The notes under the pieces were generated by a model. It saw only the letters and a list, made by a program, of their open reading frames with translations. It did not search any database and was not told where the DNA came from. Positions 2,149 through 60,383 of a stretch of 64,000 nt of DNA are shown one piece after another. Position 1 is the first letter of the stretch; the number at the start of each line of letters is the position of its first letter. The translations under genes and the position numbers were made by a program. The stretch is from the sequence record PQ306574.1; one strand, 5' to 3'. The DNA is from Escherichia phage vB_EcoM_PTE-Eco09.

Positions 2149-3081
2149 TCAAATCATGAGGATGCCGAACGGAGGATCTAATAATTCTAGTTCTTGTCGC
2201 AATTTCTCAATGTCGGCGCGTGCTTCTTCAATGATTCGGATACCATCAACAGTGACACCGCCGAGTAATTGCAGACCTTGATGTTTAGCCATGATAGACC
2301 CCCACACCTCCTTAGTGAAAGCGGTTGCCATGTCTTTAACCCAACGGTTATTATATGCGCCCTGCTTGTTCTCACTGATCGGTCCCATGCCAGCAACAAT
2401 CCCGCTTAAACCAGCAGTTGGATTATCATAAACGGCGCTAATCCCGCCAGCGGTAGAACATCCTCCAGCATGAGCATAACCAGCAACCGCGCCGATCATA
2501 TCAGGAACGTCTACATAGCTTTTAACATATAATTCAACAACAATGAGATCACCTTCTCGGAAGTTTCCTGTTATCTTAAGTTGTCCGTTTGCGCTGTTAT
2601 ACCAATAATCTGGCAGCGGATTGAGCATATTTTGCATAGTGGCTCGATAGCTCATAAGCTGTTCGAAATATCCTAGATCACCACCCATTGCATTTGGACC
2701 ATAAAATTTACTACAGCCAGATCCTAAACCGCCATTTACACCCGCTAAACCCAACAGAAAGTCGGTGAACCACGGATAAACGGCAGTACCATCCATCGTA
2801 GCCGCGCTACCTACGTTTGTTCGAATTATTTTAGTTACTGCAAATACACCAGAATCGCTTAAATCAAATACCCCGTGTTGCGCTTGTTCTGCACTAACAC
2901 GAAATACTTTATATCCTTTATTCACACCATCGAAATGATATTCCCCATAGAGTTCTAGTGCTCTCTGAATACAATCGTAAATCTGGTCTTCTGTTACTTC
3001 TACGTTAATTACTGGTGCGCCTAAACGACGCAGAATAGCGTCTTTTAATTCTCTTGGGTTATTGGTTACATATCCTGACAT
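2149..3081 (-). CDS. 13: Neck protein (T4 gp13-like)
   Basis: 310-aa ORF (T4 gp13 is 309 aa); ATG start; synteny wac-13-14. Confidence 0.85.
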
Positions 3082-3090
3082 AATATCACC

Positions 3091-3120
3091 TATAAACGAA
3101 AAAGGGGCTTAACGCCCCTT
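3091..3120 (-). terminator. Hairpin plus U-run after fibritin gene (minus strand)
   Basis: AAGGGGC-TTAAC-GCCCCTT stem-loop; on the minus strand it is followed by TTTCGTTTATA. Confidence 0.5.
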
Positions 3121-3127
3121 TAATTTC

Positions 3128-4897
3128 TTATACCGGAGAAATCCCAAAGAGGAACTCTTTAATTTGTACTGGCTGTGCTACTGCTTCGGCAGATACACCC
3201 TTAATACGGATGTTAATCTGATCGCCCTTTTCAATATTTAGGAAAGCACTGGTAGAATAGCTGATCAATTCGTCTGTGCCGTAATGACCATTTTTCGCTT
3301 CATGTACCATCTGTCCATTTTTGAAAATCGCAACAATGAATGTTGCATTATGTTGAGCTTGTACAGCACAACGGAATACACAACGGAATAAACCTTTGTC
3401 CTGAACGGTAATAACAGATTCACTTTTCACCATTTGACGCGCATTAACTTCTTCCGCCATGTCGTTAAGCGGAATCTGTTTATAAACATCCTGTTCGTCC
3501 AGTTCAACCGTAATATCTGCGGTATTTTTAAATGCTCCAGCAGCATATGCAACTTGCACCCATTCTCCGCGCTTACGCAGATAATGGAAACCGTCATCAG
3601 GTACATCATCTACTTTGTTTCCGTTAGATGTTTGTAGCTCTTTGACGATTTTAATCACGCCTTTCTGAGTAAATGGATCTTCTGAACCATCATCGCCATA
3701 GATATCACTTGATAGTTTAATAACGCCAGCGGTCAAACCTGATTCGCGATCACCTACAATCTGTTCCATGTCCTGTACGCTTGCTTCTAACCGACCCTGA
3801 GTGTTTTCTACAACTTTAATACGTCCGGCTAGAGTATGTCGATCGCTGTCAGTGCCAATCTCATTGGAAAGTCGAACAACTTCACCGCGCAAACCGTCAG
3901 CACCGCTTACACCAACAACCTGTTTAAGATCTAAAAATTCTCGCTCTGTGTTGGTTAATCGATAATCAATGCTTCCGGCCGATTGAGGCGTTCCGATCTT
4001 ATTCTCGACAGCCAGAAGACGAGGACGAATACCGGAATCTACACCATTAACATCATTGTTTAGACGTTCATAATTAGTTCCCAGCGTAGTGACTTTAGTC
4101 CCGATATCAGGGATTGAATCAAACAAAATTGCTTTCTTGACTTCTAGAACTTCGTTTGATAAGTTAGCAATGTTTCTTGCGTTGGTGCGGAGACGAACAT
4201 ACACATTTTCTTGTGTTGCAAGAGACGTGTCGCCGATCTCACTGCGCATTTTGTTAACTTGTTTTGTTAACTCGCCTACGTCAGAATCTTGCCAGTCGTT
4301 TTCAAGCTGAATGATTCGGCGACCGTGGTCATTTAATGCTGCGGTATTCTGAATAACTCGGTATTTGATGCCAGAACCGGAACTGCCAGCATCAGGGGAA
4401 CCATTGATATTAAAGTTAGGATAAGAACCCATTTCTTGTTTGATGAAAGAAATGTCATCATAGATTGTTCTTGTGCTAGGATCGGCAGCGGGGCGATCAC
4501 CAATCTTGATGTTAAGTTCTGATACAGCGTCTACCGTTGTTTGTAGAGTTCTTGCTGTTTCTCCTAAGTTATCTTCGACGGATTCAACTTTTGCGACAGT
4601 CTGGTTAACCACATCAATGATACTTCCGTCAGAAATTACCCCTAAAGTTGTTTTAATATCGTTAACCGCCGTTACAACCTCGTTAACTTTAGCGACGGTT
4701 GATTTTGCGTTTTCGTTTACGCGTGCAACGTTTTCTTGAATTGCAACCGGGGCGCGGTTAAGCGTCCCGTCATTGCCAGTCTGTGTCGTTGCTGCGCTTA
4801 AACATTCGCCATTCTTGATCCAGTTAATACGGTGCTGTCCTTCGCTTGGTACACCGTCAACATGTGGGATCTCGTGGATGTTTAATTGTTCAATCAT
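3128..4897 (-). CDS. wac: Fibritin (whisker antigen control) with extra C-terminal domain
   Basis: N-terminus (HVDGVPSEGQHRINWIKNGE) matches T4 fibritin (LPFVDGPPAEGQSRISWIKNGE); long coiled-coil region; foldon-like GFHYLRKRGEWVQV followed by about 130 extra residues. Confidence 0.8.
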   Translation of the reverse strand: MIEQLNIHEIPHVDGVPSEGQHRINWIKNGECLSAATTQTGNDGTLNRAPVAIQENVARVNENAKSTVAKVNEVVTAVNDIKTTLGVISDGSIIDVVNQTVAKVESVEDNLGETARTLQTTVDAVSELNIKIGDRPAADPSTRTIYDDISFIKQEMGSYPNFNINGSPDAGSSGSGIKYRVIQNTAALNDHGRRIIQLENDWQDSDVGELTKQVNKMRSEIGDTSLATQENVYVRLRTNARNIANLSNEVLEVKKAILFDSIPDIGTKVTTLGTNYERLNNDVNGVDSGIRPRLLAVENKIGTPQSAGSIDYRLTNTEREFLDLKQVVGVSGADGLRGEVVRLSNEIGTDSDRHTLAGRIKVVENTQGRLEASVQDMEQIVGDRESGLTAGVIKLSSDIYGDDGSEDPFTQKGVIKIVKELQTSNGNKVDDVPDDGFHYLRKRGEWVQVAYAAGAFKNTADITVELDEQDVYKQIPLNDMAEEVNARQMVKSESVITVQDKGLFRCVFRCAVQAQHNATFIVAIFKNGQMVHEAKNGHYGTDELISYSTSAFLNIEKGDQINIRIKGVSAEAVAQPVQIKEFLFGISPV

Positions 4898-6308: not shown

Positions 6309-6953
6309 TTATGCAATACGTTTGAAATAATATAGGGTAGTTCCAAATTTCTCTTCTGTACCCATTCGAGACCATGAACCATAACCAACACGAGCAGGAG
6401 AATCAACATTTCCTGTGATTGTAATTCCGTACTTGTTAATATCGGTTGGTGGGTGTTCAAGAGAATCGATATAATGAATTTCTAATTGGTCGTTGCTACT
6501 TCCTTTTCTTTTTACTTCTTTGAACATAATGTTTTTATTCATTAGTTCGGTAAATTTTTCCGTTACTTTCTCACATAGAGAAACGCCGGAAGACCCAACA
6601 TCAACAATAAATGGATAACCCAAAACATCAATTAATACTTTGTTTGCGTCTGGATTATGCTGATTGTTAACAGAACCAGAAAATGACAGAGTTTCAATCT
6701 GTCCTGCGGCTTGTGGTGGAGTTGAGTCGGTTGTAACCAACACATCACCAATTCGGATCATTGACAATGAATAAAGGTCATCAATTGCAGATTGAACGTT
6801 GTTTACATAGGAACCTTTTCTTGATTGATCGACATTAACGCCACCAATTGGACGAGAACCACCGATAACAGGATCTTTCGATCCTGGATCGTATGAAATA
6901 AACGCCGCATCGCTGGAAAATACACTAGCTTTTGAACGTGTTTTAGAAATCAT
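6309..6953 (-). CDS. 11: Baseplate wedge protein (T4 gp11-like)
   Basis: 214 aa (T4 gp11 219 aa); position between gp10 and gp12. Confidence 0.8.
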   Translation of the reverse strand: MISKTRSKASVFSSDAAFISYDPGSKDPVIGGSRPIGGVNVDQSRKGSYVNNVQSAIDDLYSLSMIRIGDVLVTTDSTPPQAAGQIETLSFSGSVNNQHNPDANKVLIDVLGYPFIVDVGSSGVSLCEKVTEKFTELMNKNIMFKEVKRKGSSNDQLEIHYIDSLEHPPTDINKYGITITGNVDSPARVGYGSWSRMGTEEKFGTTLYYFKRIA

Positions 6954-6954
6954 A

Positions 6955-8757
6955 TTAACCTACCCTTAGCCAACGATAGACAGTTCTGTATGGAGGAAGA
7001 ATACCCATCATTGATGGATCGGTATTTCCCTGATTAACTTTAACATTATCTTCTCGATATTTGGTAAACGCTGGACCTACTGCATCAGGGTCTACCTGAC
7101 AACCACCGATAATAATATTTCCGTTATCATCTTTTACAAGAACTCGATCGTTGCTCTGTAATTCAGGAATCATATTTTTCTTGATCTGGTATGCAACATC
7201 ACCACCGTTACCACCTGCGGTGTGTGTAGGTTGACCATGTGTATCAAGATCGTTGTTGTTTAGTGCGAAGTTTTGATCGCTTGCGTCAGAAGACCAACCA
7301 GCCAGAAATTCTCCTTCCGCATAACGTACCCATGTACCAATTCCCATATATGTCGCCGGGTTAGCTGGGTTATGCGCGTTTTCATAAATTGTGCCTATAG
7401 GATGGAAAATATCAAAGATGGAATAGATATCCATCACACGACCTGTATAATCTTCCATTGGGCGTTTAGTTGCTTGGCTTGGATTCTGGAAATCGGTATA
7501 TTCAATTCGATTTGTCAGAGTAACTTCATCTTCGTTATTAAGATAGATTTTATCTGCTTTTTCTTTAATACCGCCTACACCGTCCCATTCCATTAATGTT
7601 CCGATATCATTATTAAACCAGCGAATTGTGATAGTGTCTCTGTTATCTAGTGCTTTAGATAATTTAATACCAGTCACCACGCTGTTTTCGTCAAACATTA
7701 ATGAATAATCTTCACCAGATTCCACCCATTGACCGCCAGCAAGTACGCAGGTTTCTTCCGTTTCACCGTCAGCACCTTCACAAATAAAGGAAGGTAAATC
7801 CGCATCACCCGCTTTAATCATTTGTGTGCCGTTGATCAGCAATTCAAATGAATTTGGGTTAATAAGATCTCGCTTACTTACGCCTAATTCAGCATTAGTA
7901 AACTCTTTCTTATTAGCAAGTTCACCGACCCAAACTTCACCAGGGATGGATTCCAAAGTGGTCATTCCTGTTTCATAAACGCGGATTGTATGAGTAATAT
8001 AGCTTGACCGGAAGGATGCGATACCGTCCATATAAGTGATGATTTGAATGGTATCACCCGCCGAACAAGGGAAGCGTAATTTAATGCTTTTACCGTCAAG
8101 AGGAACAATATCACCGTTTTCACCGATTGAACCATAGTTAGAATCATCGGTTAAATCCTTGCCATAATAAAGCAAGTTACCGCGATAATACACTTCAACA
8201 TTTCGAATATTGTAAGTATTGGAACCAAACACATTAGGGAAGTCTGTTTGTCCTTCGGTTGCAATATAAACTTCCTTAGCGACTGTGCTTAAATCGGAAG
8301 TGGTGATAGTATCTACTCGTTTATTTTCGACATATTCCCAACGTCCGGGCGCACAATAAACCAATTCAACATCCATGAAATCTTTATACAACTCACGGTC
8401 GATTGGAGATCCCTTAATGGTATCACCTTGCGCTGGCTTCAACGTTACGTTATGTGCAGCCCATGAGCGCCAAACATCACGAAGTTTAATTGTTTTATTA
8501 TAATCACTCGCGCTTCCTTTAGGCAATTCAACAGAAACAGCGTTGTTCGTTGTATTAATCGCCCATGCATCACCAAAATTTGGTTTTAATACTGGTTGTG
8601 TGTGAGTTTTCCACGCGCCGGATGCATGAGGGATATCACCATCCCCCAGCTTAGTATAAAGTTCAGAAAAGTTGTCATTAATCTTTTGACCGCCTTTTCT
8701 TAGATAATCACCTGTACCGTCATCAACAACGTTACCGATATTAATTAATTGTTTCAT
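6955..8757 (-). CDS. 10: Baseplate wedge protein (T4 gp10-like)
   Basis: 600 aa (T4 gp10 602 aa); synteny. Confidence 0.85.
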   Translation of the reverse strand: MKQLINIGNVVDDGTGDYLRKGGQKINDNFSELYTKLGDGDIPHASGAWKTHTQPVLKPNFGDAWAINTTNNAVSVELPKGSASDYNKTIKLRDVWRSWAAHNVTLKPAQGDTIKGSPIDRELYKDFMDVELVYCAPGRWEYVENKRVDTITTSDLSTVAKEVYIATEGQTDFPNVFGSNTYNIRNVEVYYRGNLLYYGKDLTDDSNYGSIGENGDIVPLDGKSIKLRFPCSAGDTIQIITYMDGIASFRSSYITHTIRVYETGMTTLESIPGEVWVGELANKKEFTNAELGVSKRDLINPNSFELLINGTQMIKAGDADLPSFICEGADGETEETCVLAGGQWVESGEDYSLMFDENSVVTGIKLSKALDNRDTITIRWFNNDIGTLMEWDGVGGIKEKADKIYLNNEDEVTLTNRIEYTDFQNPSQATKRPMEDYTGRVMDIYSIFDIFHPIGTIYENAHNPANPATYMGIGTWVRYAEGEFLAGWSSDASDQNFALNNNDLDTHGQPTHTAGGNGGDVAYQIKKNMIPELQSNDRVLVKDDNGNIIIGGCQVDPDAVGPAFTKYREDNVKVNQGNTDPSMMGILPPYRTVYRWLRVG

Positions 8758-9608
8758 GTAGCAACCCCGATTTTAATAGTGTCTACGGCTTTAACTGCTA
8801 AACGAATATTTTCGCCAGTAGCCTTATACTCTGCATATACTTTATCGCCGGAACCTATGAAATAACGAACCGTGTATAATTCGTCTTCTGTCTTCTGCAA
8901 AACTGCATATTCCGTCGCATAAACTTTTCCGGCTTTAGAATCAATCATCAGTAGCGTTTCACTTGAACGCATTTTTGAACCGGATGTATTGCTAGCGGTA
9001 GTTAATAATTTGATGGAAACGTATTCTGTTTTTGCGGCAATAGCAACGTTTGTTGCTACTCCAGTTACGTTAACTGTTTTATCTAATGGCGTTGTTGTAT
9101 CGGTAAACATACTTTCGATACCCAATCGCCATGTTGCGCGACTACCTTCAACGGCAGTACACCAAACAGTGACTTTTGAAAATGGTTGTGTTATTGTAGC
9201 ATCACCGGAATAACCGCTAATAGAATCACCTGCTTGAGTTCGAATATTGAGCGGTGTCGTCGTTGAAAAGCTACCGTTACTATTTATGAATACAACACCC
9301 TCACCAACCTTTGCTTTAGGTAGAATAGCAATAAGTGCGCCTTGAGTTGTATCGATATCGTGTAGACTCCCAATCTCAACAGCGGACCCAGAGTAGCTTT
9401 GACGTGGATGTTTCTGATAGTATCCGGTTGCATGAATAACCATTCTTCCTACGCCGTGGTCTACGTCTTTAAACCGTTGATCAGCAAATGCGTCATATAT
9501 TGAATCAAAGTTATCGTTAATTTTATTGCCGCCATCATATAAGATATCGCCAGTCGATGGATTGCCGACAGTACCTGTGTCTATTCTTTTCTTTGGAACT
9601 TGTGCCAT
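8754..9608 (-). CDS. 9: Baseplate wedge / long tail fiber socket protein (T4 gp9-like)
   Basis: 284 aa (T4 gp9 288 aa); overlaps gp10 start by 4 nt; synteny. Confidence 0.8.
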   Translation of the reverse strand: MAQVPKKRIDTGTVGNPSTGDILYDGGNKINDNFDSIYDAFADQRFKDVDHGVGRMVIHATGYYQKHPRQSYSGSAVEIGSLHDIDTTQGALIAILPKAKVGEGVVFINSNGSFSTTTPLNIRTQAGDSISGYSGDATITQPFSKVTVWCTAVEGSRATWRLGIESMFTDTTTPLDKTVNVTGVATNVAIAAKTEYVSIKLLTTASNTSGSKMRSSETLLMIDSKAGKVYATEYAVLQKTEDELYTVRYFIGSGDKVYAEYKATGENIRLAVKAVDTIKIGVAT

Positions 9609-9683: not shown

Positions 9684-10523
9684 TTAAATGTCAAACAAAT
9701 CTGAGAGCGTCCCAGACTCGCTTTCCTGTTTCGGTAAGGTAATCTCCTTACTTTCTTCTATTTGTTCGTTAGGACGTGATTTAGGCGCTTCTACGGCTTC
9801 TTTCTCGTAATACCGAACCTCAACCACTTCTGTTAAAACGTTGGTACTATGCCATTCATCGCGATAGATTGATGTATCGATCCCACATCCGGCGTAAGTC
9901 ACCAAACCAGTTTGTTTGCTCCATTTTAGATATTTATTAGACTTCACTGATTCATCATAATAAGGTCTACCGGAATAAGCAAACCCAGCGGAACTAGCAG
10001 GAACAATAAAATAACCTACATCGGCAAACTTCTGGCCTAACGTCATAACCTTAAATTCAAACTCACCGCCAGTATATTCAAATACATCCTTTGTGTCTGT
10101 AGTATTGATTTTACCGAAAGGTGGATTGCTGATCACCACATCGAATTTTTCGTTTGACTCAAATTCGAATACATCGCTGGTGATCCATTCTGCCTCCGGT
10201 AATAGTCGCTTGCCAATCCGCGCAAATTCTGGATTGAGTTCGACGCATACGATCTTTTCTGGCTTACAACGATGTAACATACAAAAAGATAAGCGACCGA
10301 TCCCCGCACAAAGATCTAATACTTTTCCGGTGCAATATGCATCAATGGTAAAATCCCAGGCAAGCCATTCTGGGGTAAAGAATGCACCGGAACCGCCTAG
10401 ACCATCGCCATGATAGTTATTATAGCAAAATTCTTTTTCTTCATATGTCAATGGGCGATCTGAATTAATCAACTCCATCACCCGATCGTGTAATTTTTGT
10501 TCTTGTTTAGAAAGTCGTGCCAT
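9684..10523 (-). CDS. N6-adenine DNA methyltransferase-like protein (gamma-class motif order)
   Basis: FFTP motif, LDLCAGIG SAM-binding motif and VISNPPFG catalytic motif in that order, then a roughly 140-aa C-terminal region; no T4 counterpart at this position. Confidence 0.65.
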   Translation of the reverse strand: MARLSKQEQKLHDRVMELINSDRPLTYEEKEFCYNNYHGDGLGGSGAFFTPEWLAWDFTIDAYCTGKVLDLCAGIGRLSFCMLHRCKPEKIVCVELNPEFARIGKRLLPEAEWITSDVFEFESNEKFDVVISNPPFGKINTTDTKDVFEYTGGEFEFKVMTLGQKFADVGYFIVPASSAGFAYSGRPYYDESVKSNKYLKWSKQTGLVTYAGCGIDTSIYRDEWHSTNVLTEVVEVRYYEKEAVEAPKSRPNEQIEESKEITLPKQESESGTLSDLFDI

Positions 10524-10855
10524 TATTTAACCTTTGCTGTGACGGTAACGCTATGTCCCAAATAAACATGAGACATAAAGAACACAAAGTTTTTAAATTG
10601 CGGATTCTTACGAATCCATCGTTTCAATTTTCGAATGCAAGTTATACGATGGTCATAATTAGAATAACTAAATTCAATACCCTGTTTCATCATCTCGTGC
10701 ATTTCTTCGTATGTGTGCCATTGGTTATCATGTTTACAAAACCAATGAGTACCATAGAGTTTAGGATCTTGTGCACGTAGACCATAGTAATGCTTTTGCA
10801 TTGGGAACTTAGCTTTATTCATTGTGTAATGCAATTTAATATTTACGCGTGCCAT
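10523..10855 (-). CDS. Hypothetical protein (cassette ORF 2, 110 aa)
   Basis: ATG start; its stop shares one nucleotide with the MTase start codon; His/aromatic-rich; no recognisable motif. Confidence 0.45.
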   Translation of the reverse strand: MARVNIKLHYTMNKAKFPMQKHYYGLRAQDPKLYGTHWFCKHDNQWHTYEEMHEMMKQGIEFSYSNYDHRITCIRKLKRWIRKNPQFKNFVFFMSHVYLGHSVTVTAKVK

Positions 10856-11100
10856 TTTCTATTACCCCACATACCGAAAGTTGGATTATACACAAAATAG
10901 ATAGCTTCGTCGATAGTCTTGAATCGTTTAGTGTCATTCATGAAGTTGATACCCTCCCATAGTTCATCGGTGTAATCGGCTAGTGATGAATGAGTATGAT
11001 CGATGATCTCTCCGATCTTTTCACCGTTCGCGATCACATCCCAACCGCAAGGGGATACCTGAATTGCTTCACAATTATCTGTAAATTTACGACGTGCCAT
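10843..11100 (-). CDS. Hypothetical protein (cassette ORF 1, 85 aa)
   Basis: ATG with GGAGGA RBS; first gene after the cassette promoter; no recognisable motif. Confidence 0.5.
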   Translation of the reverse strand: MARRKFTDNCEAIQVSPCGWDVIANGEKIGEIIDHTHSSLADYTDELWEGINFMNDTKRFKTIDEAIYFVYNPTFGMWGNRKWHA

Positions 11101-11129
11101 AATTTATCCTCCGTTGTTTAGATGTGATC

Positions 11130-11158
11130 ATTATACCTTATCAGACAAGATTGTCAAC
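11130..11158 (-). promoter_or_regulatory. Sigma70-like early promoter driving the inserted cassette
   Basis: Minus strand GGTGTTGACA-N17-TATAAT, same context as the plus-strand early promoter modules at 26-61 kb. Confidence 0.6.
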
Positions 11159-11161
11159 ACC

Positions 11162-11194
11162 CAAAATAGAAAAGCCAACTCTCTCGAATTGGCT
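11162..11194 (-). terminator. Hairpin plus U-run after gp8 (minus strand)
   Basis: AGCCAA-N10-TTGGCT stem followed on the minus strand by TTTCTATTTT. Confidence 0.5.
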
Positions 11195-11208
11195 TTTAAA
11201 TCATACAC

Positions 11209-12204
11209 TTAGAACTCAAACAATACAGAAACAAGTTCTGTTTGATCTAATGACCGAACGATAGGTTGTCGGTTTTCCATGTAGATCATTTCGCCTGAGT
11301 GTGGCTCTAAGTCTTGCGGTCGGTACTTATCTTTGACCGCTTTAACGTCTGGATCGCTAGGGCGTGCTTTCTTTTCCAATGGGTTAAGGATAATGCTTAA
11401 CTGACGGAAACCAGTATTACCCACTAACGCGGTAGTTGGGAATTGCGCAGAGTCCATATAAGCCTGAAAACGCAAAGTTACTACTTTCAGCCGATAAAGC
11501 AGATTATAGTCATTATACCAGGTGGTCACATTGTCATAACCCCAACGCGCCGGATCTTGTCGCAGTTCATCGGGGAACGGTACAACAATATGTTCATTGG
11601 TGCAACGGTTGATCGCCGCATCAGGTGGAATTGTGTACAGATATTCCCAACGATATCCATCACCCATATCAATAGAATCGCCCTTTCCTACAGGTGGCGC
11701 AATTGATTCATGGGTAGGTGTCCACTTTCCGCCCAGCTTCAAACACTCTACTTTAGCGTCAATGCTTGAAATAGAGCAGTAACCGCGATCAGGAACATCG
11801 GTTACACGGTAAACCATCCAGCCGCTACCAACATCTGTACGGTTATATGGTGCTGAGTTTACGACAACAATGTCATTGATAAAGAACGTGCGCGGGTTAT
11901 CCTGTCCGGTATCACCCCAATCTTTACGAGGGATAACCGCATCAAGAAGTGATTTGTTAATCTTAACCGCCCCCATCATATGGGTCCACATGTCAACAAC
12001 ACCAGCCGTTGAATCGGTCGGATAAGGTGGGGCAAAGCCCACCTCTTTTTCGTTTTCTGACCACGGCTCCGAACGTCCAAACGTTCCATAAATTGTAATT
12101 TGATTTGCTCCATCGCCTACAGAATTATAGAAGTTCAGAAGTTTTTCTGTTCTGAATTTGCTAGTAATGATTGAGCGATAGATCACACTATTTTCATTAG
12201 CCAT
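11209..12204 (-). CDS. 8: Baseplate wedge protein (T4 gp8-like)
   Basis: 331 aa; ENSVIYRSIITSKFRTEKLLNFYNS and GFAPPYPTDS resemble T4 gp8 DSSVIYRAIVTSKFRTEKMLNFYNS. Confidence 0.9.
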   Translation of the reverse strand: MANENSVIYRSIITSKFRTEKLLNFYNSVGDGANQITIYGTFGRSEPWSENEKEVGFAPPYPTDSTAGVVDMWTHMMGAVKINKSLLDAVIPRKDWGDTGQDNPRTFFINDIVVVNSAPYNRTDVGSGWMVYRVTDVPDRGYCSISSIDAKVECLKLGGKWTPTHESIAPPVGKGDSIDMGDGYRWEYLYTIPPDAAINRCTNEHIVVPFPDELRQDPARWGYDNVTTWYNDYNLLYRLKVVTLRFQAYMDSAQFPTTALVGNTGFRQLSIILNPLEKKARPSDPDVKAVKDKYRPQDLEPHSGEMIYMENRQPIVRSLDQTELVSVLFEF

Positions 12205-15200
12205 TAATTTTCCTCTGTGTCGGATTCTTCGGATCGCGTGGATTCCCTATATTATCCTTCAACCGTTTATCTACAAGTTCACGGAACATAGAGAATGTTA
12301 CCGCCGACTGGTCAAACAGTGGACTCATTGCAAATCTTCGTTCGCTTGCTTTAAGTCCGTGGAACAATTCGCTGTTCTCCTGATCATATTCAGGAGGAAC
12401 CGGAAATTCTTCACCAATTAAAGGTGAAGTCAAATATAATGCTTTTCCGGTAAGCGGGTCTTTCTTAATGTTTCCGTCAACGTCAAGGTCTGCCACCCGA
12501 TCAGGATACACGCTAGGCAATCCGCTGTCAAACTTATAATTTTTCAGAGATTGAATTATAGTCTCGGTGTGCTTCATGCTTAACCCGCTGTTAATGAACA
12601 TTGTAAGCAGGGTAACACCGATAAACCCAAAGCCGACAGGATGAACGAATCGCATTACATCATTTGCATAGCGCGAAACTGGCAATGCACTTTTAATCTT
12701 CATGGTGTATTGGCTTCGTGAGCGGTTGATATAGTCGATTGAACTACTCAACAACTCTTTACCACGTACACCAACAAGGATCATCCCTTCAAACGCTGTT
12801 TTCTCTGATTTGATCACTTGACCTTCTTCGAACCGCCCGATCAGGTTATGAATGGTTACTCGCCAGCGTAGGCGACCACCTTCATATTCCCTTTCAAGAT
12901 ACGTCACGTTAGCCCGTCCGGTTGGAGTATAAATCGTGCGACCTACGATATCCTCGTCAATGTTCGTTGAACTAACAACAATATCATACTCTAGTCCGGC
13001 TTGTGATTCAACCTCAATTTCCACATCTTCATTATAAAGTAACTTAAACAAGAACTTATAAGAAGCCTCCACGCCCTTAGTGGAATAAAAATCTGATTTG
13101 CGGGATTCAAAGAATCTTACTACCGCATCTCGCTTGTTTTTATCTGCATAGATGTTTCGTTTGTTCATCTCTGACCAAAGATACTCATATGCATCTTTCT
13201 CGCGTGGATATTTGTTTTTAATCAGATTTTTTAGTTTATTATAATATGTTCCTGAACCATCGCTTAAGAATTGCAGATAATATTCAGAGAATTTTCTGAA
13301 ATTTTCGTTCTCAAGTAAAAAGCTATCAGGGGTCATCTTATTCAGTAAAGGCCGCAAATCTGGATCTTGCTCTCGATCGTAGTGAACCGGAACCCAGGGA
13401 ACCTCTCGAACCTGATTTTGCAATTCAGCAACAAATGCTACATTTGTAGGTTTCCAATATACACCAACCTGATCACGAACACGATAATTAAATTGATAGA
13501 ATCCTATGATCTCTCCTGTGTTTTTATGGAACATTACACCGGATGCATATTGTTTGAATCCTTCAAATTTAACATTGTTAAGATAACAGGTCACGGTCCC
13601 TTTATCATAAACTTCTCGGTTGACCCTATTTTGGTCAAGAATGCCAGACGTATCAACTTCTTGAGTATAGATAACCTCTGGATAAACAACCAACGGGCGA
13701 TTATCATTTGTGATCCACACACGGACACCGTTTCGACGCATCCATGTATAATCAGCCTCGTTATAATACGCTTGCGGTCCTAACTCCCAAATACGCAAAT
13801 CATCATAACTTGCTCTGAAAGTAGTTTGATGTATTTTCTTATCAGTTAGATAAGTTGGCTCCTGAGAATATTTTACAGCTTCGCCCAATTCATATTTCTC
13901 GGCAGTTTCTGGATCAGGTAAAATGCTTTCGAAGTGATGATTATAATGGCTTATGAACACCTCATCACCATTGGTTGACATATTACTGAACCCATGCTGA
14001 ATGTATTCCCTTTCCTGCGGAGTGTTGCCAAATACTCTCTGAAAAGACAGACCATCACTCCCTATTAAGTATACACCCGCATCATCTGACGGAACAACGT
14101 TTTCTGGTTTAGTTGGATCTTGATAACGCTGTTTAACTTCACCCGTAACAAATACAAGCAATTTACCGTCGATCACATCCATTTTCTGAATGACAGCTTT
14201 ATCATTTCCTGTTACTCGGATAACATCAGGATCGAATATTTTTTCTCCAAACGTAGGCGAACCCTGTACGGTATCAACAGGAGTATTCTTAAGACGAATC
14301 CGGCGAATAACATCTTTAGCACCAACCCACAAATAGTCATCACTACACGCCATAGCTTCGGCGTATTTTGTGGTATCACCTGTTAATCTGGAAAATACAC
14401 CAAAGACCTCAACGTCAAAGCCTAAATCGTTTTCGTCACCGACCTTTGCAAAAGTGATCGTATCATCACTAAATCGAACATCGTCCGCGCTCCATCGAGT
14501 ATCGCTCGCTTGTCGTCCGTAAAAGATTCGGTCATATCCTAAAACGTAAGTAGTGGTTTTAGACTGATAAACGCATGTACGGGAAACCGGATTGCCTACA
14601 CGGTCATTAAAAGCCTTGTATGCTTTCCATGATTGACCTTTATCATTTGACACTTTCACGATCGGCTGGAACCGTTCGAAAAGGTACAAAACACCGTTCA
14701 TTTCCGCTAACATAGTGCGGTTTATATCAGTACAAACTTTTTCTATATGATCCTGTATTTCATGAAAGTTCTCATCAACTACAATGTAGTTTGAGATATT
14801 TGTCATGTTTGCATATTCAGGACTAAAGACAAAATCTTCCTTCATCAATGATGCTTGAATAAGGTCGGTATTAAACTTGACATACTCTCGATTATCGTAT
14901 GTAAATTTTTCCTTTATAAACTCGTTTGCAAGGTTGAACTCTCGCATCATAGAAAAATTATATGCGTTTGTTTTAAATGTCTGAAACTCTTCTGTCTCAA
15001 CCCATTTACTTTGTTCAAATCCTTCTGCGGCTACTGCTACACGAAACTTGTAATAATATTCTGGAAAAAGGTTTTTATCCTCAAACCAGTTTTGTTCGGC
15101 AGTATATCCCAGGTTTACCCAGCTTAACTCATCGACGGGGATGATCTCCCCGTCTCGTGTTCTGGTTTCGGCTAACTCCACAAAATAAAAGAAGTTTTCG

Positions 15201-38779: not shown

Positions 38780-38819
38780 CCCCAGATTATAAATATAACT
38801 GAATATTTTTAATCTGGGG
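38780..38819 (+). promoter_or_regulatory. Long hairpin carrying a TATAAATA late-promoter motif in its loop
   Basis: CCCCAGATT..(22-nt loop containing TATAAATA at 38788-38795)..AATCTGGGG, about 33 nt upstream of the ATG at 38829. Confidence 0.35.
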
Positions 38820-54679: not shown

Positions 54680-54689
54680 GGTGATTATT

Positions 54690-55217
54690 ATGGAATGGGA
54701 AGTTGGTAAAACTTACAAGATTGAATGCGAAGCGTCGAAAGCCGAACTGACTAAATTTTCGTCGTCTATTAACAGATGTATTGTTGACTTGTTGGCTGGT
54801 CGCCCGTTTAGGGTAGAAGACCTTGACGATGATGGTGATGTTAGAGAAATTACTATTATTGGTAGTAATTTCGACTCTATGACGTTAAAAGAATCCCCTA
54901 TTGGCTGTTCCGGTGTGTGGTTTTGGTCGGGTGAGCGTCGTTTCTTTACCGAAGTTACTATTGAACCTAAGATTCCAGAATCGGAAGAAAAAGAAGAAGA
55001 CCTAACTTTAGAACGTCTGGGTCTGCTTATGGAAGCCTACGACATTCAGTTGATCGATAAGATGGGGTTACATAATAGCATTGCCAAAATTACTACCATA
55101 GAAGGTATTAAGAGCGTACTGGATGGTATGCCTAGCCGGATCGGTGCTATCCGCGAATACAAGCAAACGCGCGACCGTATGATCCAATTAGAATCACGTA
55201 TCAAAAATGAGAGATGA
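54690..55217 (+). CDS. Repeat-module family protein 1 (WEVGKTY module)
   Basis: MEWEVGKTYK..WFWSGERRFFTEV; GAGGTGA RBS. Confidence 0.5.
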   Translation: MEWEVGKTYKIECEASKAELTKFSSSINRCIVDLLAGRPFRVEDLDDDGDVREITIIGSNFDSMTLKESPIGCSGVWFWSGERRFFTEVTIEPKIPESEEKEEDLTLERLGLLMEAYDIQLIDKMGLHNSIAKITTIEGIKSVLDGMPSRIGAIREYKQTRDRMIQLESRIKNER

Positions 55218-55221
55218 TATT

Positions 55222-55707
55222 ATGAAATGGGAAGAAGGGAAGACATATAAGTTGGTTGGTGAGGACGAAAAGCGCATTTTGCGTGATTGTTGGCGTTACG
55301 AACAAAAACCTAATATTGATGGTGTGTTTACATATCTAGATAAACCATTTACTGTCGCTACGGTAGACCGTTGGGGTAATGTACGTTCAATCTATAATCA
55401 CGAAGGGGATTATATTAGTTCTATCGATGTTGGTGATAATATATGGTTTTCCGATGGCGACCGAGCGTGCTTCAAAGAAGTTTTATTGCCTGGTCATGAA
55501 TATGATCTAATAGACCTTCTCAAATTGGCGATGGATAATTATAAAATTCGCTTTGAATGCAAATCACATGCGGCTATCGGTGCTAATGCCTTGCGTCATA
55601 TCTCCAGTTTTGAAGAGTTGAAAGATTTTCTTGACAAAATGCCGGAAAGAGTGCAAGCTATACAGGAAGCAGAGAAAGCATTAAACGAACTTGATAAAAT
55701 CGGTTAA
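55222..55707 (+). CDS. Repeat-module family protein 2
   Basis: MKWEEGKTYK..WFSDGDRACFKEV; C-terminal helical tail similar to protein 1. Confidence 0.5.
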   Translation: MKWEEGKTYKLVGEDEKRILRDCWRYEQKPNIDGVFTYLDKPFTVATVDRWGNVRSIYNHEGDYISSIDVGDNIWFSDGDRACFKEVLLPGHEYDLIDLLKLAMDNYKIRFECKSHAAIGANALRHISSFEELKDFLDKMPERVQAIQEAEKALNELDKIG

Positions 55708-55719
55708 GGGGAATATATT

Positions 55720-56286
55720 ATGAAATGGGAAATTGGTAAAACTTACACCTGGAAAGATGAAAACGCTAAAACTGAGTTTATTACTAACGGAGAAGGTGTT
55801 CTTTCTCCACTTAACAGCGATATTAGTGCAGCTATTGGTGACAAGCCATTTACCATCATCGAGATCGATGGTAACGGTTGGATTGATGCAATAGAGCTAG
55901 ACGGTGTTTATCATACGGCGAAAACTGCTACAGGAAAAGACATTTGGACTGCAACATATTTCTTTAGTCCATTCGATCGAAAATTCTTTCGTGAAGTTGA
56001 AGAAGTTCCCCAGAAATGGGAAGTTGGTAAAACTTATACTTGGAAAGATGCGAATGCTATGACCGACTTCTGTCATTATGCTGAAAACGTATCTAATCTT
56101 AATTATGTTATTGCACGAGCAATAAATTATAGACCTTTTACTGTTAAAAATGTTCGTCCATGTGGGCAAATTGATGTAATTGAAATTGATGGTAAAGACC
56201 ATACTCTAATGAGCGCAACCGAAGATAGAGACCATAAGGAACTAGCTGGTTTATTGATTCTGATAGAAAATTCTTTCGTGAAGTAG
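55720..56286 (+). CDS. Repeat-module family protein 3 (two tandem modules; second module frameshifted at its end)
   Basis: MKWEIGKTYTWKDENA..FDRKFFREVEEV then KWEVGKTYTWKDANA..; the reading frame loses the module end about 56235-56250. Confidence 0.45.
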   Translation: MKWEIGKTYTWKDENAKTEFITNGEGVLSPLNSDISAAIGDKPFTIIEIDGNGWIDAIELDGVYHTAKTATGKDIWTATYFFSPFDRKFFREVEEVPQKWEVGKTYTWKDANAMTDFCHYAENVSNLNYVIARAINYRPFTVKNVRPCGQIDVIEIDGKDHTLMSATEDRDHKELAGLLILIENSFVK

Positions 56287-56291
56287 AAGAA

Positions 56292-56543
56292 TTGGAAGTT
56301 ATAACCACTGATTCTAAGATCGTTGGACAGTTGAAACGTCTGTTTAGTAGTCGTTACGGCCTGACAATGGTTAAATTTGGCGAAGCAAATGAAGGTAAAA
56401 CCTTTGAACGTTTCGATGATTTCATTGCGGCACTTGACAAGATGGATGAAATCATGCAAGATCGCCAGAAGATTAAAGACCTTCAAGAAGACATTAAACG
56501 TCGTGAAGTTGAATTTTTGATTGGTAAAGAGCGAGGTTGGTAA
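56292..56543 (+). pseudogene. Frame-shifted continuation of repeat-module protein 3 (probable disrupted gene segment)
   Basis: In the -1 frame from 56238 the DNA encodes GTSWFIDSDRKFFREVEEL.., homologous to the module end and continuing to 56543; there is no ATG start (the track start is TTG). Confidence 0.4.
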
Positions 56544-56544
56544 T

Positions 56545-57021
56545 ATGTTTGTTGTTGGTATGACCTATCAGTGGAAAAACGAACAAGCGCGTAAAGCATT
56601 TGCAACCAGTGATGCGAATCGTGTGATCTCCGAGTTTATCGGGGACCGTGCGTTTAAAGTCTTAGCTATTGATTCATCTAGTATACCTGAGTATGTTTCT
56701 GTGATTGAAATCGATGGTAAGGCTTACCAGTGTCCAGACAATGAAAAGGTTTATCTTTATGCTTGTAATTGGTTTTCGCCTACAGAAGATCAATATTTTA
56801 AAGTGGTATCAGCAGAGCTATCATCCGAAGCAATGATGCAACAATTCTTCAATAACTACGAAGTTTCTGTGCGTCGCTATGGCGAAGAAGAAGTGTTTAA
56901 AATCGATGATTACAATCAGTTTAAACGAGTATTCGCCACTAAGTTACAGCGTGACTTTGAACGTGACCAACGGATCAAGGAACTGGAAGAAGAACTAGAA
57001 AGATTAAAGGCTGAGAAATGA
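56545..57021 (+). CDS. Repeat-module family protein 4
   Basis: MFVVGMTYQWKNEQA..WFSPTEDQYFKVV; CGAGGTTGG RBS. Confidence 0.5.
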   Translation: MFVVGMTYQWKNEQARKAFATSDANRVISEFIGDRAFKVLAIDSSSIPEYVSVIEIDGKAYQCPDNEKVYLYACNWFSPTEDQYFKVVSAELSSEAMMQQFFNNYEVSVRRYGEEEVFKIDDYNQFKRVFATKLQRDFERDQRIKELEEELERLKAEK

Positions 57022-57287
57022 TCGAGATATACGGTATACCGAAAGAGGCTTATCATTGTTATGGTTGTATTAGTGCAATGAAGCTACTGGATGATCTGGG
57101 TATTCCGTATACACTTAAACCAGTATTCAAGCAGGTCGGGGTTGACATTATTCCCGACCGTGATATGATTGAAGAACTGGCGGGGAGGCTAAACTCAAAG
57201 AGCCTCCGGTTTGTATACCCCCAGATATTCATTGACAACGAGCACATTGGAGGCTATAAAGAACTGAGGGCGATTTATGATTATTGA
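57018..57287 (+). CDS. nrdH: Glutaredoxin-like protein (NrdH-like)
   Basis: CYGC redox motif near the N-terminus; IGGYKEL near the C-terminus; ATGA overlap with the upstream gene. Confidence 0.6.
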   Translation: MIEIYGIPKEAYHCYGCISAMKLLDDLGIPYTLKPVFKQVGVDIIPDRDMIEELAGRLNSKSLRFVYPQIFIDNEHIGGYKELRAIYDY

Positions 57288-57435
57288 GAATTTAGTTTCG
57301 GTGTTCATTATTGCTTTATTTGCTATAATGGCTTTACCGTTGAAGAAGTGTAAACACTGTAACGGAACAGGATTGCGTGGTGATGGGTGTTGCGCTCATT
57401 GTCACGGATCTGGTAAAGTAAGTATCATTAAGTAA
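57277..57435 (+). CDS. Small membrane-anchored DnaJ-type zinc-finger protein (52 aa)
   Basis: Hydrophobic N-terminus then CKHCNGTG..CAHCHGSG (two CxxCxGxG motifs); overlaps the nrdH stop; not in the ORF track. Confidence 0.4.
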   Translation: MIIENLVSVFIIALFAIMALPLKKCKHCNGTGLRGDGCCAHCHGSGKVSIIK

Positions 57436-57456: not shown

Positions 57457-57744
57457 ATGTTAGTACACAATGCAATCGCACACATGGTTTATTCTCGATT
57501 TGGGCGCATGGAAGAAATCAATATTACCGACGCGGATTTAGATCTGATGCAAGTCGAAGGCCAGACATATCTGAAAAATAACGGCGTGAATATCGGTAAA
57601 GCGCGTGTGCGTGAATTGTTGGTTGAATATATTCTCTCTGAATTTGGCATTAGTGCTTTCGGTGTGAAAGAGATTGCACCTAAGCGCGAAATTTCTGATA
57701 AAATGATCAAGAAATGCCAGAAAGCACGACGTAAGGGTTTCTAA
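57457..57744 (+). CDS. Hypothetical protein (95 aa)
   Basis: GTGAGGAATATATTATG leader. Confidence 0.5.
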   Translation: MLVHNAIAHMVYSRFGRMEEINITDADLDLMQVEGQTYLKNNGVNIGKARVRELLVEYILSEFGISAFGVKEIAPKREISDKMIKKCQKARRKGF

Positions 57745-59213
57745 TGAAGATTGAAACATTAATCGCATTGCCAGCGGCGGGGAAAACTGATGCTATACTT
57801 TCCCACGTCCTAGAGACAAAAGAAAAAGCGGTTATTGCTTCGCCATCTCGTGTTTTAAGTGAACAATCTTACAATAAGTTTAAAAGAATGGGCGGTCGTG
57901 CTGTCTTGATTGATAGCACAAGACTAAGAAGCCTTAAGACAGTGCAAGCGTCGATAATGCAATCAGTTAAAGACGGTGCTGATGTGATATTCATTACACA
58001 TACAGCGTTATCTAATATGGAACGTTCAAAAATGTTTGGTGATTATGCTCTTTACATTGATGAAGTTCCTCAACTGGTTGAATTTAATGAGTATCCGTTT
58101 AAGTCTAATCTTGAACTTATCACGAAGCATTGCGAACCAATCGCCGACGAATCGGAATGCCTACAGAACTTAGTTCTAAAAGACTCTGAGAAGGCCGCTA
58201 TCAAAGAAAAGATAGAAAGTGCGAAGGATGGTACTGATATGATCGATTCTTCTCTTAGAGGGCTTTATGAGGCGTTATTAGAGAAGAAAATCAACGTTAT
58301 GGTAAAACATAACGAAGGACACCGGAAGAATGGGTCGAAAATTGTTTTCTTGAACGATAACAAACACGGTACGTGGGGAGACTTTAAAAAGGTTACGATA
58401 GCATGTGCAAATCTCTTTGATACATATAGTGGGAAGTATCTACGATACTATGCAAATTGCGATTTTGTTCCGAGTGCGCTAGAATCCAGACTATATTTCA
58501 AAGAGTATAAAAATACAGATAGAGTTAATATCATCCTTATGACGGACTCTGAACGATGGTCGCGTCACCAGTCAGAAACAAACAATACCTTTGAACGTCT
58601 TGTTGATATGGTTAAAAATGAATGTGGCGATGACTTCATTTATACCGTGAATCGGGACCGAGAAGCGTGTACAAATGGTATTGGTGAGCGGATACCTTAC
58701 GGATCTTATGGTCTTAACTCTTACATTCATCATAAAAATGTTGCTGTGATGTTCAGCTTTAACCCTCAACGATGGGAGATTGATATTTTAAAAGGTCTTG
58801 CTAATAGTTGTGATCTCCCGACAAATGAGTTTTTGAAAGCGCGTCATGTGTCTGATTATCTGGAACCAGCATTTCAATTATGTTTGCGTTGTAACCTGAG
58901 AGACAACGAGAGCAAGGAGAATGTTAATCTATATGTTCCTGATTGGGCGTTGGTGGATTATCTAAAAACGTTTCTACCTAATGCCAATGTAATAACAGAC
59001 CGAATGATTCCGCTAGAATGTGGTGAGCGTAAAGGGCGAAAATCATTTAAAAAGATGTTCGACTTTAACGAGCAAGAGAATGCAAGATTTAACGGATTTA
59101 AGTACCGCATGAAGAAAAAAGGAAAAACTCTTGATCCGTCTGACGGTGAATCAGTAGAGATGGTTAGAGTGTGGATAACTAAGCAAAGAAAGTATAATGG
59201 TAATGGGGAATAG
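57744..59213 (+). CDS. P-loop NTPase (helicase/translocase-like) of unknown function
   Basis: Walker A-like ALPAAGKTDA, then VIASPSRVL and Walker B-like YIDEVPQ; 489 aa. Confidence 0.5.
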   Translation: MKIETLIALPAAGKTDAILSHVLETKEKAVIASPSRVLSEQSYNKFKRMGGRAVLIDSTRLRSLKTVQASIMQSVKDGADVIFITHTALSNMERSKMFGDYALYIDEVPQLVEFNEYPFKSNLELITKHCEPIADESECLQNLVLKDSEKAAIKEKIESAKDGTDMIDSSLRGLYEALLEKKINVMVKHNEGHRKNGSKIVFLNDNKHGTWGDFKKVTIACANLFDTYSGKYLRYYANCDFVPSALESRLYFKEYKNTDRVNIILMTDSERWSRHQSETNNTFERLVDMVKNECGDDFIYTVNRDREACTNGIGERIPYGSYGLNSYIHHKNVAVMFSFNPQRWEIDILKGLANSCDLPTNEFLKARHVSDYLEPAFQLCLRCNLRDNESKENVNLYVPDWALVDYLKTFLPNANVITDRMIPLECGERKGRKSFKKMFDFNEQENARFNGFKYRMKKKGKTLDPSDGESVEMVRVWITKQRKYNGNGE

Positions 59214-59253: not shown

Positions 59254-59787
59254 GTGTCTGATTATGTAAACAATAAAGAGCTTTACGAAGAAATTTGCCG
59301 TTGGAAACAACGAATTGCAGCAGAAGGTCGGCAAGTTCCAATGAGCGATCAAATCGGCCTAGCAATTATGCAAATCTCTAAAAATCTATCACGTCGTTTT
59401 AACTTTTCTGGTTATAGTCAAACATGGCGCGAAGAAATGATCGACGACGGAATCGAAGCGGCGGTCAAGGGTTTGATTAATTTTGACGAGACAAAGTATA
59501 AAAATCCTCATGCTTACATCACGCAAGCGTGCTTTAATGCTTTTGTACAGCGCATTAAAAAAGAGAGAACAGCGACAGCCGCAAAATACAAATATTTTGT
59601 GCATCATGTATATGACGAACGCGACGCTGATATGTGCCAGATTGCTGATGAGGCATTCATACAGGACATTTACGATAAAATCAACAACTACGAGGAATCG
59701 GTCAATAAACCGAAAGCGCCAAAGGTTGAAGATGTATTGGCCGAGGAATTGCCTAGCTTGGACCAATTTTATGAGATTGAAAATTAA
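59254..59787 (+). CDS. 55: Late-transcription sigma factor (T4 gp55-like)
   Basis: YVNNKEL, GLAIM.I...[39 protein letters not shown] resemble T4 gp55; GTG start after GAGGGTG. Confidence 0.9.
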
Positions 59788-60293: not shown

Positions 60294-60315
60294 TGGCTTT
60301 ATAAGGGAGACTCTG

Positions 60316-60340
60316 AAAGGGGTTTCCCTTTTTATTTTTC
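60316..60340 (+). terminator. Hairpin plus U-run
   Basis: AAGGGG-TTT-CCCTTT followed by TTTATTTTTC. Confidence 0.4.
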
Positions 60341-60383
60341 TGTGATATAGTGAGAGCATCGAAAACGAAGAGAGGAAGAGACT

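Follow-up and report, generated by a model that had tools for sequence, protein, structure and literature searches.

The 64,000-nucleotide (nt) stretch of Escherichia phage vB_EcoM_PTE-Eco09 that we analysed (PQ306574.1; hereafter the window) carries at positions 57744..59213, on its + strand, an ATG-initiated open reading frame (ORF) for a helicase-like ATPase of 489 amino acids (aa) of the superfamily 2 (SF2) type. A first-pass annotation had pointed to this ORF, with its ALPAAGKT and YIDEVP motifs, as a P-loop ATPase of helicase-like motif arrangement and possibly a translocase. Coordinates, length and both motifs are exactly as it described, and a full SF2 motif set together with a predicted two-RecA fold bears out its helicase-like reading. 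The protein is the orthologue of RB49ORF044c of phage RB49 and belongs to the PHROGs family phrog_2467. The window is closest to the Krischvirus coliphages kvi and FL20 (99.8% nt identity over 7 kb), with other RB49-like phages at 97–99%, and its 489-aa protein is 99.8–100% identical to RB49ORF044c and to the orthologue in phage JSE, both of which are labelled 'hypothetical protein'.

The gene and its slot in T4-like phages

The 489-aa ORF is a real, constrained gene and not a chance ORF. The ratio of nonsynonymous to synonymous substitution rates (dN/dS, Nei-Gojobori) lies between 0.02 and 0.06 in six orthologue pairs, reflecting strong purifying selection. The gene was found by tblastn in 243 phage records, 237 of them with a full-length copy, and a large protein database held 42 full-length homologues with identities down to 31%. 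Among cultured phages it is limited to the non-T-even T4-like phages, namely Krischvirus, Pseudotevenvirus (RB16, RB43), the Aeromonas phages 44RR, 25, 31, 65 and CC2, and phages of Proteus, Morganella, Erwinia, Serratia, Cronobacter, Citrobacter, Enterobacter and Klebsiella. Scanning a genome collection with the T4-like alignment returned two contigs only (35–36% identity), which we read as T4-like phage sequence, and tblastn with a distant short form of the protein recovered nothing beyond the same T4-like phages.

The start codon of the ATPase gene shares nucleotides with the TAA stop of the upstream 55.2 gene (cttcTAATGaag), an overlap that suggests translational coupling, and a Shine-Dalgarno-like AAGGG lies 9 nt 5' of the start. 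The 55.2 homologue itself (57457..57744, +) is a DUF7570 protein (Pfam E = 1.4e-28; phrog_1475) with 42–47% identity to the 55.2 of RB14 and RB32, and its ATG at 57457 is the counterpart of the annotated 55.2 start in RB49. In T4, gp55.2 is a DNA-binding inhibitor of Escherichia coli topoisomerase I (PMC4396842). Downstream of the ATPase gene stands the gene for the late sigma factor gp55 (59254..59787; phrog_234, E = 6e-63). The gene order in the window runs nrdG, four tandem paralogues, nrdH, a 52-aa ORF, 55.2, the 489-aa gene, 55, a-gt.5, a-gt.4 and 47; apart from the 489-aa gene, which stands between 55.2 and 55, the order is that of T4, and it agrees with the earlier remark that small 55.x ORFs and the a-gt region occupy this neighbourhood in T4.

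The slot is the same in all 31 loci compared, the 3' neighbour being gene 55 or, in the RB16/RB43 group, gene 34. In most of these loci the ATPase start overlaps the upstream stop by 1, 4 or 11 nt, and in most lineages the upstream neighbour is a 55.2 homologue (DUF7570). In Aeromonas phages of the 44RR/25 group, the gene immediately 5' is a DprA-like 'DNA recombination-mediator' (phrog_768, E = 2.8e-55), which in 44RR occupies locus positions 3498–4004 and overlaps the ATPase gene by 4 nt, the 55.2-like gene lying further upstream; the coupling of a helicase to a mediator of single-stranded DNA (ssDNA) recombination may hint at function. Across phages, 55.2 occurs in 1092 records versus 243 for the ATPase, and because the T-evens keep 55.2 without the ATPase, the two genes are best described as neighbours by descent that are probably co-expressed, not as an obligate pair. 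An obligate two-gene module is ruled out by the record counts, by the genes that intervene in the 44RR group, and by the distant relatives, which have no 55.2-like gene beside them. Two T4-like viral contigs encoding proteins with 40% identity to the window protein each carry two 55.2-like paralogues 5' of the ATPase gene (2881–3213 and 3657–4001; 2893–3216 and 3654–4001), one adjacent to it and the other about 0.8 kb further up.

In a consensus scan, the best sigma-70-like promoter match (TTGACA-16-TATGAT with a TG extension, 11 of 12 positions) is found at 57142..57169 (+), inside nrdH, and is a candidate early promoter for ORF046, 55.2 and the ATPase gene. The first terminator-like hairpin downstream (hairpin scan; 60303..60330, +) follows 55, a-gt.5 and a-gt.4; the transcription unit probably ends there, and the GEC-3S record has a terminator annotated at the same place. 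No late-promoter motif TATAAATA occurs near the ATPase gene, the closest match in the window being at 38788. The slot lies within the pre-replicative nrd-55-47 block, with NrdG, NrdH, gp55 and gp47 encoded by its neighbours, and these signals suggest pre-replicative co-transcription with genes of nucleotide and DNA metabolism.

Motifs, predicted fold and likeness to known helicases

Conservation was read from an alignment of 30 T4-like homologues and from a separate set of 144 diverse family members. Motif I, the Walker A ALPAAGKT (aa 8–15; 57765..57788, +; PAAGKT at 10–15), has P10, G13, K14 and T15 invariant in the T4-like alignment, with G13 and K14 retained in 96% and 99% of the wider set; since just seven residues precede it, there is no room for a Q-motif. 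The motif Ia-like segment ASPSRVLSEQS (aa 32–42; 57837..57869, +; T4-like consensus ASxSRxLSxQS) has S33, L38 and S42 invariant and A32, S35, R36, S39 and Q41 at 90% or above among the T4-like homologues, and is aligned by hhalign with PTRELA of the DEAD-box protein RhlE. The T4-like alignment also brings out a conserved segment that bears no motif name, VIFITH (aa 81–86). Motif II, the Walker B LYIDEVP (aa 103–109; 58050..58070, +; YIDEVP at 104–109), has D106 and E107 at 100% and P109 at 89% across the 144 members, and K14 is separated from D106 by 92 residues.

An insertion of about 105 aa (aa 110–215; 58071..58388, +) separates motifs II and III, and its modelled secondary structure mixes strands with two long helices (147–162 and 166–179). 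The distance from Walker B to motif III is 96–136 aa (median 115) in all 144 members. The motif III-like strand VTIACANL (aa 216–223; 58389..58412, +; T4-like consensus VTIAxAN; modelled strand 216–221) has A222 in 92% of the wider set, and T218 and N223 in at least 90% of the T4-like clade.

The second RecA-like domain (aa ~240–420; 58461..59003, +), which alternates strands and helices in the model, holds the remaining motifs, for which the percentages again refer to the 144 members. These are the motif IV-like FIYTVNRDR (aa 298–306; T4-like consensus FIYTxNxxR; N303 92%), the motif V-like YGLNSY (aa 322–327; HGLNxY; G323 and N325 100%) and the motif VI-like FQLCLRCNLR (aa 377–386; FQLCxRxNxR; Q378, R382 and R386 100%), whose Q-x3-R-x3-R spacing is one residue off the canonical QxxGRxxR. 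A second conserved segment without a motif name, NLYVPD (aa 395–400; NLxVPD; V398 94%, D400 93%), follows. The protein ends in a basic helical tail (aa 421–489; 59004..59210, +; net charge +7; modelled helices 443–458 and 468–484), which could bind DNA or a partner. Within the T4-like clade its residues E445 and W477 do not vary, and the tail is specific to the stand-alone T4-like forms, its position in long-form relatives leading into a primase-like extension. Taken together, the conserved residues are those that would be expected in the binding of ATP, in its hydrolysis and in coupling between two RecA-like domains.

The AlphaFold2 model built from the alignment (predicted local distance difference test score, pLDDT, 87.9; predicted TM-score, pTM, 0.76) is a confident one and has two RecA-like domains. 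Foldseek against the PDB gave 221 matches at E ≤ 1e-3, and the best 50 were nearly all helicases of SF1 (superfamily 1) or SF2, or SecA. Best first, the matches were XPD (3crw, E = 1e-10), DinG in complex with a type IV-A3 CRISPR effector (8s35_M), the DinG of E. coli (6fwr_A, TMq 0.52) and CasDinG, with DEAD-box proteins, RecQ, SecA, PriA and T4 UvsW trailing by orders of magnitude. A separate model of a 799-aa long-form relative (pLDDT 85.7) again placed DinG and CasDinG first. In a viral structure library, members of the same family were found in phages that are unrelated, namely Agrobacterium Atu_ph07, Ralstonia phiRSL1, Fusobacterium Fnu1 and Pseudoalteromonas H101, followed by 'DinG/Rad3-related' phage helicases.

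XPD and DinG carry an Arch domain between motifs II and III, and the phage protein shares the two-RecA SF2 core with XPD, Rad3 and DinG, being closest to members without Fe-S such as the type IV CRISPR protein CasDinG; its large motif II–III insertion has the position and size of an Arch domain and may be the counterpart of one. It differs from XPD and DinG in lacking a 4Fe-4S domain: the gap between Walker A and Walker B is just ~90 residues, and the protein has no conserved cysteine cluster, C130 and C380 being the only invariant cysteines in the T4-like clade and none being invariant across the wider family. CasDinG and Staphylococcus aureus DinG likewise lack a functional Fe-S cluster. The phage protein is also much shorter (489 aa) and has a basic C-terminal tail of its own, and Pfam DEAD_2 and Helicase_C_2 gave no match in it. 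We treat it as a distinct SF2 family whose nearest structural neighbours, judging from the models, are XPD and DinG, and not as a member of the XPD/DinG family.

The first-pass annotation had seen no clear match to the T4 helicases Dda and UvsW, and direct comparison agrees. BLASTP was non-significant against RB49 Dda (E = 0.17) and UvsW (E = 3.2), as was hhalign against UvsW (E = 0.24), and T4 UvsW came at structural rank 30 in Foldseek (TMq 0.21). RB49 encodes its own dda, gene 41, gene 61, uvsX and uvsW elsewhere, and the non-significant comparisons together with these separate dda and uvsW genes rule out a diverged Dda or UvsW. T4 Dda (SF1B), UvsW (SF2) and gp41 (DnaB-like) are likewise motor ATPases of phages in the same virus family, likely engaged in the same processes, but they have no homology to the 489-aa protein detectable beyond the generic P-loop; the protein is an extra motor, not a replacement of a T4 helicase. 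Profile searches of Pfam, PHROGs and NCBIfam assigned it no T4 core function; such an assignment was what the first-pass annotation had named as refuting its reading. The PHROGs match was to phrog_2467, 'unknown function', over the full length (E = 2.9e-175, residues 1–489 against profile positions 8–502 of 502), NCBIfam gave no match, Pfam Helicase_C (PF00271) was not matched, and single-sequence and profile searches against PDB sequences gave nothing meaningful. The motifs and the model together depict a complete two-RecA-domain SF2-type ATPase, more than a P-loop, and this part of the assignment is much firmer than the DNA substrate, the polarity or the role.

Primase-fused relatives and the likely role of the protein

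A profile search of 1.84 billion representative sequences placed 1330 clusters (50% identity) in the phrog_2467 family at E ≤ 1e-3, and 766 at E ≤ 1e-10. The distant relatives are of two sizes, ~480–550 aa and ~780–890 aa, and 63 of 134 distant full-length members have a C-terminal extension of ~350 aa with the pattern LDFDGG ... NSFS..RYRV.IP ... sG.D.sK ... FYLP, then a helical G.GN.FF.LA..L...GL. The Pfam domain PriCT_1 ('primase C-terminal') was matched by 2 of 13 extensions (best E = 1.1e-4) and the 'DNA primase' family phrog_9765 by 9 of 13 (best 2.3e-10); further PHROGs were also matched (phrog_2135, phrog_17236, a 'replicative helicase-primase' family). In the distant member P0043, residues 563–691 match DNA primase (1.1e-8). 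From its three-motif pattern, the extension looks like a primase of the archaeo-eukaryotic type (AEP); a profile search of PDB sequences with the extension gave noise only.

Long forms were located in the chromosome of Bradyrhizobium sp. 172 (locus 10001–12427), where the gene may belong to an integrated element and has genes for an ATP-dependent DNA ligase and for DUF6641 nearby, as well as a faint ORC/CDC6-like gene, and in the jumbo phage Atu_ph07 (locus 6995–9283). A plasmid search with a long form found three Sinorhizobium megaplasmids only. The Bradyrhizobium gene overlaps an unannotated upstream ORF of 150 aa by 4 nt. A profile of the extension matches both the Bradyrhizobium and the Atu_ph07 long forms but gives no match to the 64-kb window or to the T4-like loci; by sequence, the T4-like phage clade is the helicase-only form. 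An orthologue of this helicase-only protein in Klebsiella phage phi1_146002 (PP889458.1, 37590–38846) is annotated 'DNA primase', a label that is doubtful because the T4-like proteins have no primase-like extension, and that was probably carried over wrongly from primase-fused relatives.

Two publications bear on the family. Nolan et al. (2006) list RB49ORF044c with a weak Pfam DEAD/DEAH match (E = 0.069; PMC1524935), and Kazlauskas et al. (2018) predict a 'novel helicase family of viruses and plasmids' that has relatives among T4-like phages (PMC5862659). By its description, phrog_2467 probably corresponds to their pVOG1685 helicases; for a related group, pVOG9714, they report a likeness to UL9, the origin-binding protein of herpesvirus (PMC5862659). 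Like the family described here, the All3500 AEP family and the pVOG1685/pVOG9714 helicases have a remote SF2 module that is present in T4-like phages and, in mobile elements, fused to primases with PriCT, of AEP type there and of probable AEP type here. The phage protein differs from the All3500/pVOG1685 fusions in having no primase domain at all. The order of domains differs as well: Kazlauskas et al. put the helicase C-terminal to the primase (PMC5862659), whereas the long forms found here have the helicase first, the primase-like part second and a PriCT tail, the reverse of the usual primase-then-helicase order. The N-terminal-primase architecture of the 2018 paper was not recovered, the extension of member P0131 being C-terminal and the N-terminal region of P0125 reaching only E = 0.12. 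In view of these two reports, the 'unknown function' of the first-pass annotation was slightly too strong. The find is correct but unsurprising, an enzyme of known kind that had been flagged bioinformatically before; the addition made here is modest: motifs and fold are analysed in full, the family is sized, and its helicase-then-primase fusions are described.

We think it probable that the 489-aa protein serves replication, recombination or repair as an accessory DNA helicase or translocase, alongside gp41, Dda and UvsW and in a phage that has a helicase-primase of its own, gp41/gp61. In such an enzyme, ATP would be bound between the two RecA-like domains by K14 and T15 of Walker A and D106 and E107 of Walker B, and the motif VI-like arginines R382 and R386 would sense its hydrolysis; domain closure would then drive the enzyme along nucleic acid, probably unwinding DNA. 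The analysis establishes the gene with its conservation, motifs and synteny, the modelled fold and the fused relatives; ATPase activity, DNA as substrate (most probably), polarity and biological role are what we infer. The architecture is closest to that of XPD, DinG and CasDinG, which makes 5'-to-3' translocation on ssDNA the best guess by analogy, and the recurrent fusion of the helicase module to primase-like domains suggests that the family ancestrally works in DNA priming and unwinding.

Several observations weigh against this assignment. The generic Pfam DEAD domain (PF00270) is the sole Pfam match above cutoff (27.3 bits against 26; E = 3.4e-6, aa 11–130), which leaves room for an RNA substrate. 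The likeness to DinG and XPD exists at the level of the fold only (TM-score 0.46–0.52, root-mean-square deviation 7–11 Å), and hhalign of the family profile against E. coli DinG was non-significant (E = 0.11, wrong register); with that hhalign result and the absent Fe-S cluster, true membership of the DinG family is not supported by sequence. Given a likeness confined to the fold, no DinG profile match and no Fe-S domain, the polarity is only weakly indicated. The primase assignment derives from profile matches, and the best 50 matches in the fold search with the long form all fell on its helicase half. The phage form has no primase extension and no such primase is encoded nearby, so that its function may have diverged from that of the fused relatives. 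The timing of expression is a prediction from consensus promoter and terminator scans. Lastly, the literature on RB49ORF044c, phrog_2467, Krischvirus helicases and pVOG1685 yielded only the 2006 entry and the 2018 prediction, with no functional data.

Of the other explanations, a role in the initiation of replication fares best, unlikely as we consider it. The protein would be the remnant of a helicase-primase initiator that opens or processes origins or R-loops, perhaps together with gp55.2, whose inhibition of topoisomerase I would favour negative supercoiling and R-loops. The fusion of relatives to a primase with PriCT, typical of replication initiators of mobile elements, speaks for this, as do the ligase and faint ORC/CDC6-like gene beside the Bradyrhizobium long form, the start/stop coupling to 55.2 in most lineages and the reported UL9-likeness of pVOG9714. 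UL9 is a viral SF2 helicase of replication initiation, cited as the nearest relative of that sister group, but Herpes_ori_bp (PF02399) was matched neither by the phage protein nor by ten long-form relatives, and no origin-binding domain was identified. The link to 55.2 is further loosened by its far wider occurrence, by its presence alone in T-evens, by the genes that separate the pair in the 44RR group and by the absence of an adjoining 55.2-like gene in distant relatives. A bolder version, to which we give slightly less credence, is that an ancient helicase-primase initiator of replication has left the stand-alone helicase as its surviving motor, and that in non-T-even T4-like phages this helicase, with gp55.2, makes or uses R-loops and negative supercoiling for origin-dependent initiation, a route lost in T-evens. 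If true, the family would define a class of replicases, new for bacterial mobile elements, in which an SF2 helicase comes first and an AEP primase second.

We likewise doubt that the protein is a translocase or remodeller of double-stranded DNA that does not unwind it and that strips proteins or migrates branches in the manner of Snf2, RecG and Mfd, though many SF2 motors with the same core motifs are pure translocases. Mfd, Chd1, Snf2h, PriA and the reverse-gyrase helicase domain are among the significant fold matches, but these are weaker in E-value than XPD and DinG by 4–6 orders of magnitude, and the domains specific to Snf2, RecG and Mfd were not found in Pfam or NCBIfam searches.

A DEAD-box-like RNA helicase, remodelling RNA of phage or host (for instance during mRNA processing or translation, or in RNA-DNA hybrids), is very unlikely. 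Motifs I, Ia and II of the phage protein do align with those of DEAD-box proteins, the Pfam DEAD score is marginally over its gathering threshold, and a control alignment with RhlE (hhalign) put motifs I–II in register, weakly (E = 0.02). The phage protein nevertheless departs from DEAD-box proteins in having no Q-motif, DEVP for DEAD, xAN for SAT, no Helicase_C match and a ~105-aa motif II–III insertion foreign to them; DEAD-box structures rank well below XPD and DinG, and relatives are fused to DNA primase-like domains.

The first-pass annotation had also entertained an anti-defence role. The ATPase would then counter a host immune sensor or effector that acts on phage DNA, by removing it, outrunning it or serving as a decoy, and this we hold to be equally improbable: the gene is accessory, absent from T-evens and set in a plastic region of small ORFs, and phage helicases do interact with defence (UvsW and D10 trigger Retron-Eco11; PMC12746101), but the sole PADLOC match (RTasSLATT; E = 0.0089, 13.6 bits, 60 residues) is noise, no defence link was found in context or literature, the vertical inheritance of the gene in a fixed slot across genera down to 31–40% identity under strong purifying selection is unlike the fast turnover of anti-defence genes, and bacterial chromosomes widely carry members of the family fused to a primase, which points to replication-type DNA transactions.

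The protein matters because replication and recombination have their reference system in T4-type phages. It is a fourth helicase-type motor, conserved under strong selection, that is present in Krischvirus, Pseudotevenvirus, Aeromonas, Proteus, Cronobacter and related T4-like phages; its characterization would fill a gap in the inventory of non-T-even DNA metabolism. It would also open to experiment, for the first time, a family that exceeds 1300 sequence clusters and to which neither Pfam nor NCBIfam dedicates a model. Of the distant members sampled, about half have an unusual make-up, being helicase-then-primase fusions of bacterial chromosomes and mobile elements. The annotation of the gene could be changed from 'hypothetical protein' to 'putative SF2 DNA helicase'.

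Other features of the region

The four tandem paralogues between nrdG and nrdH (54681–55217, 55207–55707, 55720–56286 and 56521–57021) are homologues of RB49ORF048c–051c. Common to them is a ~90-aa 'W(E/K).GKTY' module at the N-terminus, which is present twice inside the ORF at 55720–56286, and pairwise BLASTP between them gave E values from 1e-6 to 1e-14. At ~56236, an A-run in the window is one nucleotide shorter than in RB49 and GEC-3S (CATAAAGG to CATAAGG), a 1-nt deletion which breaks the 274-aa homologue of RB49ORF049c into ORFs of 188 aa (55720–56286) and 83 aa (56292–56543). The deletion is either a true frameshift or a homopolymer sequencing error.

The 52-aa ORF at 57277–57435 (the RB49ORF046c homologue) overlaps the end of nrdH and sits just 5' of 55.2. 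It encodes a hydrophobic N-terminal helix, then CKHCNGTG...CAHCHGSG, a double zinc-finger pattern of the DnaJ type (CxxCxGxG) with weak Pfam matches. Between a-gt.4 and 47, RB49 carries RB49ORF040c (555 bp; locus 6641–7195), a putative homing endonuclease of the HNH/AP2 type; the window lacks it, its flanks being joined directly at 60294–60383, and this is a presence/absence polymorphism of a mobile endonuclease. Over the whole window, the guanine-cytosine (GC) skew is negative at 1–20 kb and positive at 20–64 kb, and the switch at ~20000 may reflect a change in transcription direction between gene blocks.

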